In this document: positions 31,079-49,349 of the stretch, piece after piece
How positions within the stretch are numbered: the stretch's first letter is position 1
How the letters are laid out: every line of letters starts with the position of its first letter
Source: Patescibacteria group bacterium
GTDB taxonomy: Bacteria; Patescibacteriota; Patescibacteriia; Patescibacteriales; JAQVLT01
Assembly: GCA_028704015.1 (NCBI GenBank)
Contig: JAQVLT010000006.1
Location: 10,102 to 74,101 of the forward strand
Direction of reading: 5' to 3'
Length of the DNA stretch: 64,000 bases
Made by a program: the position numbers and the translations under genes
Notes under the pieces: generated by a model
Databases searched by the model: none
Seen by the model: the letters and a program-made list of their open reading frames with translations, nothing else
Told to the model about the DNA's origin: nothing

Positions 31079-31897
31079 TTACAACGGACTTTTGATATTT
31101 TTTAAACTTGGTTTTGTCACCTGCGTATAAATTTGAGTAGTCCTGATATTGCAATGACCCAAGAGCTCCTGCACATATCTCACGTCTGTGCCGTTTTCTA
31201 AAAGATGCGTAGCAAAACTATGACGCAATGAATGGAAAGTTGCGTCTTTTTTTATTTTAGCTTTGGTCAAGGCATTTTCAAAAATCTTCTGCGCCGTTCT
31301 GTCGGTTAGCTTGCCGCCTTGATTACTTTCAAAAACCAAATCTTCGCCTCGCCTTCCCGCCAAATAATTTTTTAATTCTTCCCGCAATTTCTCCGGCAGA
31401 AGCGTAACCCGATCTTTTTTTCCTTTAGCTTCTTTCAAGTGAATAAAATTATTGGCGAAATCGACATCTTTTACTTTTAAATTTATGGCCTCGCTCACTC
31501 GGAAGCCAGCACCGTAAGATAAGGCAACCAATAGTTTGTGTTTGCCATTGCTTATCGCACCAATCACTTCTTCAATTTCCTCGCGCGACAAAACCACCGG
31601 CAATTTTTTGGAAGTCTTGGCAAATTTTAAATCAATCGCCACCGCGCTTTTAAAAATTTCCCGGTAAAGATGTTTAATGGCGTTGAGATGAAGATTTATC
31701 GTCTGCGACGACAAACCGCGTTCTTGTTTTTTCAGCAAATATTTTTTTATCAACTCAATCTCCGGATCTTTTTTGACTACTTTAATAAATTTAAAATAAT
31801 CAACCAAGCAACCAAGGTAGCTCTTAATCGTTTGCCGGCTGTAATTCCGCAGTTTTAATTCATTCTCAATTTTTACCAACAACTCTTTAAATTCCAT
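31079..31897 (-). CDS. tyrosine recombinase, integron-integrase-like but lacking the IntI-specific insertion
   Basis: 272 aa. Box I GAGFRVSEAINLKVKDVDF, KGKKDR, box II HSLRHSFATHLLENGTDVRYVQELLGHCNIRTTQIYTQV (R..H-x-x-R..H..Y). N-terminal SAM-like RNYSRQTIKSYL. Confidence 0.9.
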   Translation of the reverse strand: MEFKELLVKIENELKLRNYSRQTIKSYLGCLVDYFKFIKVVKKDPEIELIKKYLLKKQERGLSSQTINLHLNAIKHLYREIFKSAVAIDLKFAKTSKKLPVVLSREEIEEVIGAISNGKHKLLVALSYGAGFRVSEAINLKVKDVDFANNFIHLKEAKGKKDRVTLLPEKLREELKNYLAGRRGEDLVFESNQGGKLTDRTAQKIFENALTKAKIKKDATFHSLRHSFATHLLENGTDVRYVQELLGHCNIRTTQIYTQVTKPSLKNIKSPL

Positions 31898-32007
31898 ATT
31901 ATTATGTTATACTTAACAACAAGAGTGCTGTTACTAACAAAATACCAAAATTTCGCATAATATACAACGACAAGTAGTTAATTAACATAAAATTCGTATA
32001 AAAACTA

Positions 32008-32186
32008 GTTCCGCCGAAATCGCTCGCTTACGCTCGCTCCTTTTCGGCGGAACGGCTTCGGAATCCTTCCTCGTCCCGCTCAGTCGCTCGCTCACGCTCG
32101 CGACATCGCGGAACTCGGAATACGCGAAATTGCCTTTCGTCCCGAAGCGTCGGGACTCCGGCAACTTCGCTTATTCCGAAGCCGTT
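32008..32186 (+). repeat. 179-bp GC-rich ORF-less element, copy E1 (at the attI-like junction)
   Basis: GTTCCGCCGAAA...TTTCGGCGGAAC hairpin, then a GGCTTCGGAAT...ATTCCGAAGCC long stem, bounded by GTT on both sides. Identical to E2 and E3 by eye. Confidence 0.95.
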
Positions 32187-32290
32187 ATACGCCATAATAA
32201 AAAGCCTCTTTTATTTTTAGTAATAATTTTGGCAATTTATTTTGTGAGGTCGACGTATAATTTTTTAAGTAATATTAATTAACAAAAAAT

Positions 32291-32581: not shown

Positions 32582-32631
32582 GATAAATTAAATTGCCAAA
32601 ATTATTTTATTAATAGAGGCTTTTTATTACA

Positions 32632-32833
32632 GCGTATAACAACGCATATCTGGCTACGGAAATTGTGCATTAATAGAAACCTTGAGGTGGCACAATTTCC
32701 TCCGCCCAAATCCCGCACTAATTTTTGTGGGATTTGGATGGAGTTAAGCATTTAAAGAAGTTTGCATTAATTTATTGCTTGTTTAAGAAACAACGAAAAA
32801 TTAGCGCGGGACTTCAGATGATGCGTAAACGTT
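32632..32833 (+). other. attC-like site 1
   Basis: GCGTATAAC-AA-CGCATATCTGG ... CTTCAGATGATGCG-TAAAC-GTT. Confidence 0.65.
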
Positions 32834-33009
32834 CCGCCGAAATCGCTCGCTTACGCTCGCTCCTTTTCGGCGGAACGGCTTCGGAATCCTTCCTCGTCCC
32901 GCTCAGTCGCTCGCTCACGCTCGCGACATCGCGGAACTCGGAATACGCGAAATTGCCTTTCGTCCCGAAGCGTCGGGACTCCGGCAACTTCGCTTATTCC
33001 GAAGCCGTT
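32831..33009 (+). repeat. 179-bp element copy E2
   Basis: Identical to E1 by eye. It starts at the GTT of attC-like site 1. Confidence 0.95.
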
Positions 33010-33089
33010 AGGCGACATATTTTAAAAACGATTCCAAAAACTTTTTTTATCGCCTTCGGCGATTTGGGGGCGAAAACTTTTTTTATTTT

Positions 33090-33098
33090 TGTTATAAT
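33090..33098 (+). promoter_or_regulatory. extended -10 element TGTTATAAT, 6 nt before ATG 33105 (possible leaderless transcript)
   Basis: Sequence tttTGTTATAATgaatacATG. No convincing -35. Confidence 0.4.
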
Positions 33099-33104
33099 GA
33101 ATAC

Positions 33105-33335
33105 ATGAATACTAAACCTTACTACAAATACAAAGATTTTTCTCTTTTTCACGGCAACTGCCTTGATATTTTAGCTAAAATTCCAGAAAATTCGGTTGAT
33201 ATGATCTTCGCCGATCCACCCTACCTACTCTCAAATGGCGGTTTTACCTGTCATGCTGGTCAAATGGTTAGCGTAAATAAAGGCCAGTGGGATGTAAGCA
33301 ACGGCCTAAAGAAAGATTTTGAATTTCATCTATGA
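33105..33335 (+). pseudogene. 5' fragment of a DpnA-like (beta-class, DPPY) N6-adenine DNA methyltransferase
   Basis: 76 aa. TKPYYKYKDF...SVDMIFADPPYLLSNGGF...VSVNKGQWD closely parallels the N-terminus of M2.DpnII (DpnA) as I recall it. It stops after about 25 percent of the expected length, and its TGA overlaps the next ATG. Confidence 0.7.
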
Positions 33336-34099
33336 AAATAATTTTTAATACAGCTCTTGCAAATAAATATACTAGCTTATCTCAAAAAGCCAGAGTTTTA
33401 ACTGAAACATGGGTTGACAATGAAATATTTTGTCCGAGTTGTGGGACAAATATTGAAAATTATGAAAATAATCGTCCAGTAGCTGATTTTTATTGCCCAA
33501 ATTGCAAAGAGGAATATGAATTAAAAAGCAAAAAAGATGGTTTGTCTAAAAAAATTGTTGATGGAGCTTATAAAACAATGCTTGAGAGATTAAAAAGCAA
33601 TAATAATCCGAACTTTTTTTTCTTAAATTACAATCCGATAAAATATGAGGTTTTAAACTTCTTGGTTATCCCAAAACATTTTTTTGTCCCTGATATCATC
33701 GAGAGAAGAAAACCATTATCAGAAAACGCTAGACGAGCTGGCTGGATAGGTTGTAATATCTTGCTTCAAGCTATTCCGCAAAGCGGAAAAATATTTTATA
33801 TAAAAAATGGAAATATTGAGAGCAAAGAGGATGTCTTAAAAAATTGGCAAAAAACTTTATTTTTAAGAGACTCAGACAAAGCTGAATTAAAAGGCTGGAT
33901 TTTAGATATAATGAGTTGTATTGATAAATTGAATAAAATAGAATTCTCTCTCGATGAAATTTATAATTTTGAAAACATTTTAAGCAAAAAACATCCGGAA
34001 AATAGACACATCAAAGATAAAATAAGGCAGCAACTACAATTTCTGAGAGACAAGGGGTATTTGAAATTTTTAGACAGAGGAAAATATAAATTAGTTTAA
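33332..34099 (+). CDS. DpnI-like methyl-directed (type IIM) restriction endonuclease
   Basis: 255 aa, collinear with remembered DpnI. SQKARVLTETWV, CPSC...NNRPVADFYCPNC zinc ribbon, EYELKSKK (D-EXK), NNPNFFFL, ARRAGWIGCNI, and the C-terminal wH IRQQLQFLRDKGYL..GRGKYKL. Confidence 0.8.
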   Translation: MKIIFNTALANKYTSLSQKARVLTETWVDNEIFCPSCGTNIENYENNRPVADFYCPNCKEEYELKSKKDGLSKKIVDGAYKTMLERLKSNNNPNFFFLNYNPIKYEVLNFLVIPKHFFVPDIIERRKPLSENARRAGWIGCNILLQAIPQSGKIFYIKNGNIESKEDVLKNWQKTLFLRDSDKAELKGWILDIMSCIDKLNKIEFSLDEIYNFENILSKKHPENRHIKDKIRQQLQFLRDKGYLKFLDRGKYKLV

Positions 34100-34301
34100 A
34101 ATTATGGAAATCAACATCAGCCCTTTACTGGCAAAAAATATTTTACGAATTAATTTTCTCACAAGAATAAAAATTATGTGCCGCGGATATAGTGAAGATA
34201 AAAAAAATTTCACCGAGCTTGTTTGGCCAGACGACAAAGATCTTGATTTTTACAACAAGAAAGATTATCCGCAATTTCAACTTTGGTTTATTTGAATTTA
34301 A

Positions 34302-35144
34302 ATGAAATATTCTATGGAAACTAATCATATTGCTATTTTTAAAGGCAAATCAATTAGAAAAACTATTTTTCATAACGAGTGGTGGTTTTCGGTAATTGAC
34401 GTTGTCGAAGCTCTAACCGGTACGGGCAGACCTAGAAAATATTGGAATGATTTAAAGAAAAAGCTACTAAGCGAAGGATTTTTTGAAGTGTCCGAAAAAA
34501 TCGGACAGTTTAAATTAATGGCTTCAGACGGCAAAATAAGAGAAACTGACTGCGCCGATACCGAGACAATGTTTCGTATTATTCAATCTATTCCATCACC
34601 AAACGCCGAACCATTTAAGCGCTGGCTAGCTAAAGTTGGTTACGAAAGAACCCAAGAAATTGAGAATCCTGAGCTGGGAATTAAAAGAACAAAGACTCTT
34701 TACAAACTTAAAGGATATTCTGAGGACTGGATTGAAAAGCGCATGCGTGGTATTACTATACGTGAAGAATGGACCGATGAATGGAAAAAACGAGGCGTTA
34801 AGGAAAATATCGAGTTTGCTATCTTAACCGCCGAAATATCAAAAGCAACTTTCGGCATGACACCAAGCCAATACAAAAAATTTAAAGGCTTAAAACGAGA
34901 AAATTTGCGAGACCACATGGACGACCTTGAATTAATTTTTTCTATGCTCGGCGAAGCTTCAACTACAAAGATTACTAGAAGCAAAAATGCAAATGGTTTT
35001 ATCGAGAATAAAACTGCCGCCCAGAAAGGCGGAAAAATCGCGGGTGATGCCAGGCGAAAACTTGAGGTTGAATCCGGCGACAAGGTTATTACTAGAAAAA
35101 ATTATTTAATAGGCGCTCAAAATCTTAAAAAACTAAAAAAATAA
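34302..35144 (+). CDS. Bro-N domain protein (antirepressor/DinD-like)
   Basis: 280 aa with the N-terminus IAIFKGKSIRKTIFHNEWWFSVIDVVEAL, typical of Bro-N. Confidence 0.65.
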   Translation: MKYSMETNHIAIFKGKSIRKTIFHNEWWFSVIDVVEALTGTGRPRKYWNDLKKKLLSEGFFEVSEKIGQFKLMASDGKIRETDCADTETMFRIIQSIPSPNAEPFKRWLAKVGYERTQEIENPELGIKRTKTLYKLKGYSEDWIEKRMRGITIREEWTDEWKKRGVKENIEFAILTAEISKATFGMTPSQYKKFKGLKRENLRDHMDDLELIFSMLGEASTTKITRSKNANGFIENKTAAQKGGKIAGDARRKLEVESGDKVITRKNYLIGAQNLKKLKK

Positions 35145-35250
35145 AAAAATTTTCGCCCCAAATCTAATTCGCTTCGCGAATTATAAAAAAAGTTTTTGGA
35201 ATCGTTTTTAAAATACGCTAAAGCCACGCTGCGCTCTCGCTATCGCTCGG

Positions 35251-35348
35251 GTCGCCTAACAACCGATATCCGGTTCGGGGCTCAGCTCGCCCCTCTCCCA
35301 TATTTTTGCTCCCGTTGGTCGCAAAAACATCGGATATCGCGAAACGTT
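35251..35348 (+). other. attC-like site 2
   Basis: GTCGCCTAAC-AA-CCGATATCCGG ... CATCGGATATCG-CGAAAC-GTT. Its R'' is the exact reverse complement of GTTAGGCGAC at 33007. Confidence 0.7.
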
Positions 35349-35524
35349 CCGCCGAAATCGCTCGCTTACGCTCGCTCCTTTTCGGCGGAACGGCTTCGGA
35401 ATCCTTCCTCGTCCCGCTCAGTCGCTCGCTCACGCTCGCGACATCGCGGAACTCGGAATACGCGAAATTGCCTTTCGTCCCGAAGCGTCGGGACTCCGGC
35501 AACTTCGCTTATTCCGAAGCCGTT
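35346..35524 (+). repeat. 179-bp element copy E3
   Basis: Identical to E1 by eye. Confidence 0.95.
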
Positions 35525-35544
35525 ATATGACATTTTAAAAAAAT

Positions 35545-35938: not shown

Positions 35939-36058
35939 TCATATAACAAAGAATATCTGGTTCAAGAATTTTTCTTGTTAATGTATAAGGAGTAAAAATT
36001 CTTTCACCCAAATTTTATTTCACTACGTTCAATAAAACTTCAGATATTCTTATACGTT
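35939..36058 (+). other. attC-like site 3
   Basis: TCATATAAC-AAA-GAATATCTGG ... TTCAGATATTC-TTATAC-GTT. Confidence 0.65.
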
Positions 36059-36232
36059 CCGCCGAAATCGCTCGCTTACGCTCGCTCCTTTTCGGCGGAA
36101 CGGCTTCGGAATCCTTCCTCGTCCCGCTCAGTCGCTCGCAAGCTCGCGACATCGCGGAACTCGGAATACGCGAAATTGCCTTTCGTCCCGAAGCGTCGGG
36201 ACTCCGGCAACTTCGCTTATTCCGAAGCCGTT
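36056..36232 (+). repeat. 177-bp element copy E4 (short variant GCTCGCAAGCTCGC)
   Basis: Same as E1 except for a 2-nt shorter inner hairpin. Confidence 0.95.
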
Positions 36233-36376
36233 AGCTGAAATATATATTTTTCTTTTGCCCTGCGGGGCAACTCTTAAAAAGAATTCAATTTTTGTTTTTT
36301 TATTAATTAGAAAGGGGTAATAAGTGTTTTCTTCGCTACGCTACAAAAACGATTTATTAATTAATCCAAAAAATAT

Positions 36377-39954: not shown

Positions 39955-40054
39955 TCAGCTAACACGGCATATCCGGTTGCGGCTTTTATACAAAAGCCTA
40001 CACCCACATTTGCCTCCGCTACGCTACGGCAAACATCAGATATGCCGAAACGTT
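39955..40054 (+). other. attC-like site 4
   Basis: TCAGCTAAC-AC-GGCATATCCGG ... CATCAGATATGCC-GAAAC-GTT. Its R'' is the reverse complement of GTTAGCTGA at 36230. Confidence 0.7.
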
Positions 40055-40228
40055 CCGCCGAAATCGCTCGCTTACGCTCGCTCCTTTTCGGCGGAACGGC
40101 TTCGGAATCCTTCCTCGTCCCGCTCAGTCGCTCGCAAGCTCGCGACATCGCGGAACTCGGAATACGCGAAATTGCCTTTCGTCCCGAAGCGTCGGGACTC
40201 CGGCAACTTCGCTTATTCCGAAGCCGTT
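40052..40228 (+). repeat. 177-bp element copy E5 (short variant)
   Basis: Identical to E4 by eye. Confidence 0.95.
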
Positions 40229-40420
40229 ATACGCAATTCAAAAAATATTTTTCTTTTAATAAGGAATTTTGACAGGCTTTTTAAAAAGGGGAATAAATTT
40301 GTTTTTTTATTTATTAGAAAGGGGTAATATTGTGTTTTTTCTGCTTTTGGAGGCGCAGAAAAAACGATTTACTTACAAGGGGAAAACGGGTACTATACAA
40401 TTACTTATTAGGAATAAACT

Positions 40421-47879: not shown

Positions 47880-48005
47880 GCGTATAACACGGCATAATCT
47901 GGTTCCAGAATTTTTCATTAACAGTTAATAATAAGGAGTAAAAAATTCTTACACCCATATTTGCCTCCGCTACGCTACGGCAAACATCAGATATGCCGAT
48001 ACGTT
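47880..48005 (+). other. attC-like site 5
   Basis: GCGTATAAC-AC-GGCATAATCTGG ... CATCAGATATGCC-GATAC-GTT. Its R'' is the reverse complement of GTTATACGC at 40226. Confidence 0.7.
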
Positions 48006-48181
48006 CCGCCGAAATCGCTCGCTTACGCTCGCTCCTTTTCGGCGGAACGGCTTCGGAATCCTTCCTCGTCCCGCTCAGTCGCTCGCTCACGCTCGCGACA
48101 TCGCGGAACTCGGAATACGCGAAATTGCCTTTCGTCCCGAAGCGTCGGGACTCCGGCAACTTCGCTTATCCCGAAGCCGTT
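48003..48181 (+). repeat. 179-bp element copy E6
   Basis: As E1 with one substitution (TTATCCCGAAG). Confidence 0.95.
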
Positions 48182-48219
48182 AGACGAAATTTTTCAAAGC
48201 TACTAACAAAAATGAATAT

Positions 48220-48999: not shown

Positions 49000-49121
49000 T
49001 CCGATAACACGGCATATCCAGCTCGGACTTTTCCGAAAGTCCTCACGCAAATTTTTGTTTCTCTTTACTTTATAATAAATAAAGGTGGAGAAACAAAATC
49101 TTCGGATGATGCCGAAACGTT
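49000..49121 (+). other. attC-like site 7
   Basis: TCCGATAAC-AC-GGCATATCC ... GGATGATGCC-GAAAC-GTT. Its R'' is the reverse complement of GTTATCGGA at 48593. Confidence 0.7.
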
Positions 49122-49315
49122 CCGCCGAAATCGCTCGCTTACGCCTGCCTACCGGCAGGCAGGCTCGCTCTTTTTCGGCGGAACGGCTTCGGAATTCTTC
49201 CTCGTCCCGCTCAGTCGCTCGCAAGCTCGCGACATCGCGTAACTCGGAATAAGCGAAATTGCCTTTCGTCCCGAAGCGTCGGGACTCCGGCAACTTCGCT
49301 TATTCCGAAGCCGTT
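49119..49315 (+). repeat. 197-bp element copy E7 (divergent; carries a nested GC-rich palindrome)
   Basis: Short variant with several substitutions. CCTGCCTACCGGCAGGCAGG (49143-49164) is inserted in the first hairpin loop. Confidence 0.95.
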
Positions 49316-49349
49316 GTACGAAATATCATTCACCTTTAATTCGTAAAAT

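Follow-up and report, generated by a model that had tools for sequence, protein, structure and literature searches.

A DpnI gene at the end of a truncated methylase gene

The locus described here lies in a 64,000-nucleotide (nt) stretch of a Patescibacteria group bacterium (assembly GCA_028704015.1, contig JAQVLT010000006.1, positions 10,102 to 74,101 of the forward strand), which was analyzed as a whole and is referred to below as the window. In it, a gene for a DpnI-family nuclease is directly preceded by a 76-codon open reading frame (ORF), here called the stub, that resembles the beginning of a DNA methylase gene. The stub and nuclease ORFs occupy separate frames and share 4 nt, and they are followed by a small ORF (orf63) and by a gene for a Bro-N domain protein; the entire cassette is enclosed by perfect 33-nt inverted repeats (Table 1), of which the left arm continues to approximately position 33090 at approximately 80% complementarity (blastn self-match of 33018-33090 with 35137-35215). 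A preliminary description, made from the sequence alone, had given the coordinates of the two ORFs, their ATGA overlap, and the presence of TGTTATAAT 6 nt before the first ATG, and all of these hold in the sequence. It had also called the two genes fused head-to-tail; since the ORFs are out of frame with each other and overlap by 4 nt, stub and DpnI do not form a fusion protein.

Table 1. Features of the cassette and repeat copies in the window (positions are those of the window; Gm6ATC, GATC with N6-methyladenine)
Feature	Position	Strand	Remarks
Left inverted-repeat arm	33018..33050		33 nt, 100% complementary to right arm
Terminator-like hairpin and T-run	33050..33083	+	Stem 33050-33073, 10 pairs, T-rich tail; consensus match only
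Extended -10 element TGTTATAAT	33090..33098	+	6 nt 5' of ATG at 33105
Methylase stub ORF, 76 codons	33105..33335	+	5' remnant of DpnA/LlaDCHIB-type beta-class N6-adenine methylase gene
ATGA stop/start overlap	33332..33335	+	TGA 33333-33335, ATG 33332-33334; junction of methylase DNA and DpnI gene
DpnI-family methyl-directed (Gm6ATC) type IIM endonuclease gene, 255 amino acids, intact	33332..34099	+	Profile and structure matches
orf63, conserved small ORF downstream of DpnI	34104..34295	+	Family A motif ...C[KR]GY[SN]ED..NFTELVW.DD..LDF...YPQFQLW
Gene for Bro-N domain protein, 280 amino acids, PADLOC PDC-S13 candidate	34302..35144	+	PF02498 6e-10; PDC-S13 4e-116 over 5-274
Right inverted-repeat arm	35183..35215		Perfect 33-nt partner of left arm
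Copies of 200-nt repeat	32004-32205, 32811-33028, 35342-35543, 36037-36243, 40033-40229, 47984-48198, 49100-49326

By profile and structure comparison, the downstream gene is a complete DpnI gene and its product an ordinary member of the DpnI family. The 255-amino-acid (aa) protein matched PF06044 (DpnI) at 7e-83 over profile positions 1-182 of 183 and PF17726 (DpnI_C) at 1.5e-32 over residues 186-253, so that both the N-terminal PD-(D/E)XK catalytic domain and the C-terminal winged-helix domain are present, as expected of the full-length DpnI-like gene that had been claimed. The structure of R.DpnI (4ESJ, also 4KYW) could be aligned with residues 1-253 of the window protein (E = 3.4e-85), with just over half of the aligned residues identical as read off the alignment rather than computed, and the PADLOC model mREase_II matched at 5e-117. 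Residues D52, E63, L64, K65, C34, and C55 were unchanged across nine DpnI relatives, and all four cysteines of the zinc site (CPSC, CPNC; Cys4) were found. Within the D/E-L-K catalytic set that the two proteins share, D52, E63, and K65 of the window protein align with D53, E64, and K66 of R.DpnI, for which catalytic roles were reportedly assigned by Siwek et al. 2012. The window nuclease would thus be predicted to be specific for Gm6ATC.

The product of the 76-codon ORF was 87% identical over its full length to the N terminus of an intact 264-aa PF01555 methylase (tblastn E = 4e-42) encoded at L025 (numbers of this form denote homologous loci compared with that of the window) and 48% identical (E = 5e-24) to residues 14-86 of LlaDCHIB from the Lactococcus plasmid pSRQ700 (NC_002798.1). 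The intact L025 methylase was itself 51% identical to LlaDCHIB over 97% of its length, and the motifs given in the preliminary description are present in the LlaDCHIB sequence. LlaDCHIB, the second methylase of a DpnII-type system, is reportedly the close homologue of pneumococcal DpnA (Moineau et al. 1995). The two similarities bear out the view that the stub corresponds to the N terminus of a DpnA-type methylase. A Pfam profile search of the 76-aa ORF gave no match, because the ORF is too short for PF01555, and NCBIfam yielded weak N-terminal matches to CcrM-type methylases (E = 1e-8).

Compared with DpnA and LlaDCHIB, the stub keeps only the first 76 of approximately 264 residues. It retains motif IV (DMIFADPPY, residues 32-40) and lacks motifs V-VIII, the target-recognition region, motif X, and motifs I-III, including the S-adenosylmethionine (AdoMet)-binding motif I (FxGxG). 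The missing parts correspond to residues ~77-264 of intact relatives, in which DPFAGSSTTG lies near residue 230, and no other piece of such a methylase gene was found in the window by tblastn. Since the AdoMet-binding and target-recognition parts are absent from the alignment, the stub would not be capable of methylation, and DpnI would therefore be tolerated beside it. As judged from these comparisons, the stub is a gene remnant and not a member enzyme of the DpnA/CcrM family. Two of the three GATC sites of the cassette (33203 and 33213) fall in the stub's DMIFADPPY codons; the A-D-P codons (GCC GAT CCA) themselves form GATC, and therefore genes of this methylase family hold their own target within motif IV.

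Intact relatives and swapped operons

A species-level scan (one genome per species) returned 80 methylase loci, most of which hold full-length methylases of 258-290 aa. The partner gene located 3' of the methylase gene encoded a Sau3AI/MutH-like nuclease of ~210 aa at 18 loci, a DpnII-family nuclease at 14 loci (PF04556, 1.5e-93), a Dam D12 methylase at 13 loci, a nameless 174-aa family at another 13, and a DUF6996/DUF6997 protein, scored by PADLOC as a type II nuclease (REase_II), at 3. On pSRQ700, the gene order is Dam-class methylase, LlaDCHIB, and DpnII-family nuclease. By this comparison, the partners of the intact relatives are the company expected of a DpnA-type GATC methylase, and the search for an intact methylase-containing version of the cassette, which had been proposed, thus found it paired with DpnII, Sau3AI/MutH-like, and Dam genes. 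The GATC specificity of the ancestor rests on these partner genes and not on the stub, because the nearest solved structure by sequence is that of CcrM (6PBD), a GANTC enzyme.

In many relatives of the window locus, a C-terminal remnant of a displaced nuclease gene was present 3' of DpnI and a small ORF. The remnants belonged to four families, namely MutH-like nucleases (~15 distinct loci), DUF6996/97 nucleases (~7 loci), the 174-aa family (4 loci), and DpnII, the remnant at L073 being a DpnII gene that lacks only its first 24 codons; four displaced families require at least four founding events. When swapped and intact loci were paired (L115/L029, L109/L051, L182/L026, and L073/L072), the left and right arms were 77-86% identical. 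Between the arms, the 582-908 nt that span the 3' end of the methylase gene and the 5' end of the nuclease gene in the intact operon have given way to 937-1036 nt with DpnI and the small ORF. Beyond the arms, the flanks were unrelated in every pair examined. The swap of restriction-modification (R-M) polarity that the preliminary description had read from the single locus is therefore seen directly in paired intact and swapped operons, and it extends to a recurrent swap.

We consider it highly probable (roughly 90%) that the intact DpnI gene of the window stands behind a methylase remnant left by the replacement of a GATC R-M operon of the DpnII type. As the comparison shows, a DpnA-like methylase gene preceded the gene of its nuclease in the ancestor, and the 3' part of the former together with the 5' part of the latter was exchanged for a core of DpnI and small ORF. 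The window keeps only the left remnant, the first 76 methylase codons with their own promoter.

Recurrence of methylase remnants beside methyl-directed nuclease genes

Metagenome ORFs homologous to the stub gave 446 matches, and the best 120 of the 446 were all 67-133 aa long, in a candidate collection that may favor short proteins, whereas the species-level scan returned mostly full-length genes. Seven of these short ORFs were examined with their context, and six lay directly 5' of a methyl-directed nuclease gene, which was DpnI in five cases; in the other case, it encoded a PLD (NgoFVII-like) nuclease that carries the DpnI winged helix as a fusion. At the seventh (P0024, L024), a frameshift divides the methylase gene, of which the short ORF is the N-terminal half, and the DUF6996/97 nuclease gene that follows is intact.

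Starting from the nuclease, we sampled the 80 metagenomic DpnI loci closest to the window DpnI (61-75% identity), of which 75 had at least 150 nt of upstream sequence. A methylase remnant was found upstream of DpnI in 21 of the 75; all 21 began at profile position 1-2, ended at positions 30-154, and adjoined the DpnI start with a gap of a few nt to ~30 nt. The breakpoint had been said to lie close to the DpnI start, and this is true both of the window, where the junction is the ATGA overlap, and of the relatives. Longer methylase remnants, of 182 aa and ~250 aa, occurred elsewhere (L033, L094). The remaining DpnI genes (~72%) had no stub, and DpnI therefore needs none. At least 10 distinct junction codons were used among the relatives, the junction of the window (after ...FEFHL, ATGA) recurring in L013, L117, L119, L125, L167, and L186. 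Among 25 distinct stubs, 20 were open up to the DpnI start and 5 stopped earlier; none of the 25 was in frame with DpnI. Internal stops were seen in the stubs of L122, L149, L098, and L073, among others. By these counts, the stub-DpnI arrangement of the window is one instance of a widespread, recurrent architecture and is not unique. The pattern was seen mainly in Patescibacteria-type metagenomic genomes. A neighbor-joining tree of DpnI was poorly resolved and did not separate a single ancient junction followed by erosion from several independent insertions.

Nucleases other than DpnI also occupied this position. A PLD (NgoFVII/DrmC-like) nuclease with the DpnI winged helix stands behind truncated DpnA-type methylase genes at L020 (4001-5169) and L094 (3779-5669), with methylase remnants of ~104 aa and ~250 aa, respectively, and these loci point to a second methyl-GATC nuclease architecture that uses the same replacement route. 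L094 was considered as a case of an intact methylase beside such a nuclease, and this was rejected, since the last ~25 residues of the methylase, including motif II, are replaced. At L088 (Candidatus Portnoybacteria, MHNE01000008.1, 3998-5510), a locus of the species-level scan, a 75-aa stub, an orf63 homologue, and a MutH-like nuclease remnant form the same frame as in the window, and the nuclease slot is held by a 247-aa ORF with a winged-helix-like N terminus and a nuclease-like C terminus (...FEVEH...). This ORF had no Pfam or NCBIfam match and only a weak PADLOC REase_II match, and it showed no profile similarity to DpnI. At L162 and L167, the stub starts a few nt past the 3' end of a tRNA-like sequence (...GGTTCGAATCCCACTCCCTCCGCCA), which suggests that these cassettes may occupy a tRNA-associated insertion site.

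Apparently separate histories of the stub and the DpnI core

Synonymous sites were saturated in most pairs, and therefore proportions of nonsynonymous and synonymous differences (pN and pS) and codon-position counts were used in place of the corresponding substitution rates (dN/dS). Across pairs, pN/pS was 0.21/0.77 in stubs, compared to 0.24/0.77 in the same codons of intact genes. At 19 positions where conservation among intact methylases reaches at least 93%, the window stub had no mismatch; stubs overall had 2.1% mismatches at conserved positions versus 0.9% (P = 0.046), mostly contributed by one decayed copy. Differences between the window stub and its relatives were distributed over the first, second, and third codon positions as 7:5:32 (L025), 8:2:38 (L105), and 6:2:29 (L186) and thus lay mainly at third positions. 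The term fossil, which the preliminary description had applied to the stub, does not fit a sequence that looks undecayed.

Comparison of individual loci indicated why this could be so. In L115 and L124, the core of DpnI and orf63 was 97-100% identical, with a pS of 0.45 in the stub versus 0.08 in DpnI. High identity continued for ~15 nt on the stub side of the core and for ~55 nt on the side of the nuclease remnant. Farther out, the arms differed mostly in third codon positions, and the sequences flanking the arms were unrelated. Similarly, L107 and L109 had the same junction and a 92% identical core, and their stubs were only ~65% identical (pS 0.81 in the stub versus 0.34 in the core). In L186 (JGI Ga0210042_1055602, 1-1744), the upstream region and stub resembled those of the window at 82-97% identity, and from ~40 nt before the junction onward the sequence was 100% identical to L117. 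The near-identical DpnI cores between diverged remnants point to spread by recombination into resident operons, and the simplest account of these alignments would be that the core moves, together with short junction-proximal pieces of the arms, by homologous recombination into intact operons. Most of each stub would thus be the recipient's own recently functional gene, and for this reason stubs would look like an undecayed methylase. Across lineages, the stub and the nuclease remnant would serve as homology arms for the DpnI core, and these arms would convert a resident intact modification-restriction (M-R) operon in one step.

The same observations bear on the possibility that the stub has been domesticated as a small protein with a function, whose amino acid sequence selection would maintain, for example as a regulator or chaperone of DpnI or as a dominant-negative partner of incoming DpnA-type methylases. 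Such a peptide would be expected to leave an intact ORF with few changes at conserved residues, differences concentrated at third codon positions, and a pN/pS as low as that of intact genes, all of which are found, and it would fit the hundreds of short homologous metagenome ORFs, of which six of seven adjoin a methyl-directed nuclease gene. The list of uniformly short matches may, however, partly reflect how candidates were collected. Remnants range from ~30 to ~250 aa, so no fixed domain is kept; 72% of related DpnI genes do without a stub; four of the stubs named above have internal stops; and alignment with CcrM shows the 76 residues to be a small N-terminal part of the methylase fold, which would be unlikely to fold autonomously. 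Moreover, the histories of stub and DpnI appear decoupled, which would explain conservation of the stub without selection on a peptide. On balance, we regard a domesticated peptide as distinctly improbable. A conserved small-protein family was also considered as the leading explanation and was rejected, given the mostly full-length genes of the species-level scan and the variable stub lengths.

Predicted promoter and expression of the cassette

The element TGTTATAAT is an extended -10 that has neither a -35 element nor an accompanying Shine-Dalgarno motif, and a leaderless mRNA starting from or beside A33105 is therefore predicted. The arrangement TGNTATAAT-N6-ATG is likewise found upstream of the stubs of L015 and L186 and of the intact gene of L025, and TGATATAAT-N6-ATG is common to the closest relatives, of which two are stubs and one is an intact gene. 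When 87 distinct upstream regions from the methylase family were compared, -10-like hexamers ended 6 nt (16 regions) or 7 nt (6 regions) before the ATG, other offsets mostly accounting for ~1-2 cases each, and a Shine-Dalgarno-like motif was present in only 6 of the 87. The suggestion of a leaderless transcript thus gains comparative support from the relatives and from the peak at 6-7 nt. The DpnI ATG of the window has no ribosome-binding site of its own, and no promoter-like element was found between the stub start and this ATG beyond weak 9-of-12 hexamer matches, which shuffled sequence yields at least as often. The ATGA is likely a termination-reinitiation coupling site, by its form, and the terminator-like hairpin would insulate the cassette from upstream transcription.

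Transcription would therefore proceed from the extended -10 of the methylase gene, 6 nt before the ATG, and produce a leaderless mRNA on which ribosomes would read the 76-codon stub, stop at the TGA of the ATGA overlap, and start again on DpnI; the same tightly packed transcript would continue through orf63 and the PDC-S13 gene. A leaderless start combined with reinitiation would account for the fact that remnants always keep codon 1 and are usually open to the junction. In an alternative reading, the stub would be a functionless, neutrally drifting pseudogene fragment, with DpnI on its own signals and the ATGA and TATAAT incidental. That many DpnI relatives do without a stub, that some (L098) have their own -10-like box directly before DpnI, and that stubs show a slightly raised mismatch rate (2.1% versus 0.9%) and occasional stops would all suit drift. 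Against it, from the stub start to the DpnI ATG the window has no Shine-Dalgarno motif and, apart from the weak hexamer matches, nothing that resembles a promoter; the remnants always retain codon 1 together with the sequence 5' of it, and none derives from the middle or the 3' end of the gene; 20 of 25 stubs are open to the DpnI start although none is in frame with it; and the -10 spacing is a conserved trait of the family. We therefore consider a drifting fragment unlikely. It is probable, taking all parts of the statement together, that the stub is a noncatalytic remnant that supplies the promoter, start codon, and translational coupling to DpnI in the window and that has served in the lineage as a recombination arm.

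Several points weigh against this interpretation. A two-hexamer promoter scan does not flag the TGTTATAAT site, which it passes over because the -35 element is absent, and both the promoter and the translational coupling are proposed at the level of consensus matches. The absence of mismatches at conserved positions and the third-position bias fit selection on a peptide equally well. L186 may have recombined very recently, or its contig could be an assembly chimera, as a 23-nt stretch at the crossover is common to all three sequences. The window copy has no right arm, since a right-hand nuclease remnant was not found in the window; compared with the relatives it is lost, and the PDC-S13 gene sits where they keep the remnant. 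Nor does the window have a close relative that shows recent transfer, and the role as an arm would apply at the level of the lineage. Finally, the many junction positions need either several illegitimate founding events or repeated deletions.

We tentatively extend the replacement reading to a self-propagating cassette, which we regard as a possibility rather than as the expected outcome. The arms of such a cassette would be pieces of the operon that it destroyed, and it would home by homologous recombination into any resident DpnII-type operon and flip the lineage in one step from cutting unmethylated to cutting methylated GATC. It would have done so repeatedly, in Patescibacteria as well as in other phyla, and DpnI, PLD with DpnI_C, and a third, nameless nuclease would have been its interchangeable modules. 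A role of the stub peptide, or of the small ORF after DpnI, in keeping the cell alive through the switch, when its genome is still methylated, appears less likely.

Companion genes and repeats of the window

Homologues of orf63 were found 5-30 nt 3' of DpnI in 22 distinct loci and in none of 66 intact M-R loci. More generally, small ORFs of 52-70 aa located 5-60 nt after DpnI (L003, L009, L119, L127, L136, and others) fall into at least four unrelated families, of which family A (orf63-like) occurs with MutH-like remnants, family B with those of DUF6996/97, and family C with those of the 174-aa nuclease. Intact M-R operons contained none of these families, and neither orf63 nor the other small ORFs after DpnI had a Pfam or PADLOC match. 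PDC-S13 is a PADLOC single-gene phage-defense candidate, and the match spans the full length of the Bro-N protein. Its gene appears to be cotranscribed with DpnI; it is specific to the cassette copy of this genome and is absent from the relatives of the cassette.

A second cassette, consisting of a 96-aa ORF within 30-nt inverted repeats (32184-32213 and 32611-32640, 90% complementary), lies next to the first, and a tyrosine recombinase gene (31079-31897, minus strand) is located nearby. The left arm of each cassette follows one copy of a 200-nt repeat, and the two inverted-repeat pairs are mutually unrelated. Two bracketed cassettes and a recombinase gene resemble the layout of a cassette array. 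The perfect repeats around the DpnI cassette, the second pair around the neighboring 96-aa ORF, and the recombinase gene are what one would look for in an invertible or excisable module of which stub-DpnI is one state. Inversion, however, would leave expression unchanged, since the promoter lies inside the repeats; the 64-kb window contains no alternative 3' part of a methylase gene; both public assemblies carrying this exact DpnI share its orientation; and relatives have the same junction without these repeats. We consider such a switch extremely improbable.

The ~200-nt repeat is GC rich in an AT-rich genome and intergenic, and it is present in at least seven same-orientation copies with 85-98% identity (Table 1). 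Its predicted folding was very stable, with z scores of -7.2 on the plus strand and -9.2 (-110 kcal/mol) on the minus strand, and it had no Rfam match and contained no tRNA. Scans of 30-38 kb for tRNAs and Rfam families revealed nothing that explains the flanking repeats. The composition of the plus strand of the window is strongly skewed (C, 20.5%; G, 16.4%). GATC occurs 140 times in the 64 kb, with an observed/expected ratio of 0.80 under a Markov model, versus 0.79 for GTAC and 0.68 for CTAG, so that the proposed check of GATC frequency showed no marked avoidance; no other Dam-class or beta-class methylase was found within the window by tblastn.

Relation to known systems and significance

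The closest parallel is the pair of DpnI and DpnII cassettes of Streptococcus pneumoniae, reportedly described by Lacks et al. 1986. The pneumococcal pair shares with the loci described here a mutually exclusive action on methylated versus unmethylated GATC, the opposition of DpnI with a small accompanying gene to a DpnA-type methylase with a GATC nuclease, and, presumably, a nonhomologous core that is exchanged by homologous recombination between homologous flanks. The two pneumococcal systems are treated as alternative restriction cassettes (PMC3573125, PMC3812788). The pneumococcal flanks are neighboring chromosomal DNA around clean alternative cassettes, whereas those of the present loci consist of the displaced system's own truncated genes, and, unlike in the pneumococcal pair, the displaced nucleases come from at least four families. 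The neisserial dam-replacing gene drg likewise encodes a DpnI-family nuclease in place of a GATC methylase gene (PMC4269198). There, an alpha-class dam gene is replaced at the leuS/dam locus, whereas here an operon of beta-class methylase and nuclease genes is gutted and both of its ends are left. As for the promoter, an extended -10, leaderless promoter of the pneumococcal DpnII operon was reportedly characterized by Sabelnikov, Greenberg and Lacks 1995; the window shares with it TGNTATAAT a few nt before the ATG and the lack of a -35 element and of a ribosome-binding site. Unlike in the DpnII operon, the window promoter would drive the antagonist nuclease via a stub ORF. The literature searched, whose coverage was incomplete and is not proof of absence, contained no account of a methylase stub preceding a DpnI gene. 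As far as we know and could find, neither the pneumococcal nor the neisserial system has its nuclease gene set within the remains of the operon that was displaced, an arrangement that recurs here in many lineages and with several nuclease families.

R-M systems of opposite polarity are mutually lethal at one site, and how lineages switch between them is therefore a real question, to which, as far as we know, essentially only the pneumococcal DpnI/DpnII cassettes have so far provided an answer. The loci described here appear as exchanges frozen in midact, with the nuclease gene lying within the remains of the genes that it displaced, in many uncultured lineages and against four nuclease families. 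For the window alone, the consequences are modest: the annotation of the 76-aa ORF should read methylase remnant, Gm6ATC is predicted to be absent from the host, and DpnI is predicted to run off a captured leaderless promoter. If the remnants indeed work as homology arms, they would provide a simple and general route by which a defense gene spreads by targeting its antagonist, and this would also explain a large class of short metagenome "methylase-like" ORFs that are annotated as methyltransferases. The window copy itself is a well-explained scar, and the pattern across the family would be that of a defense gene spreading by replacing its antagonist.

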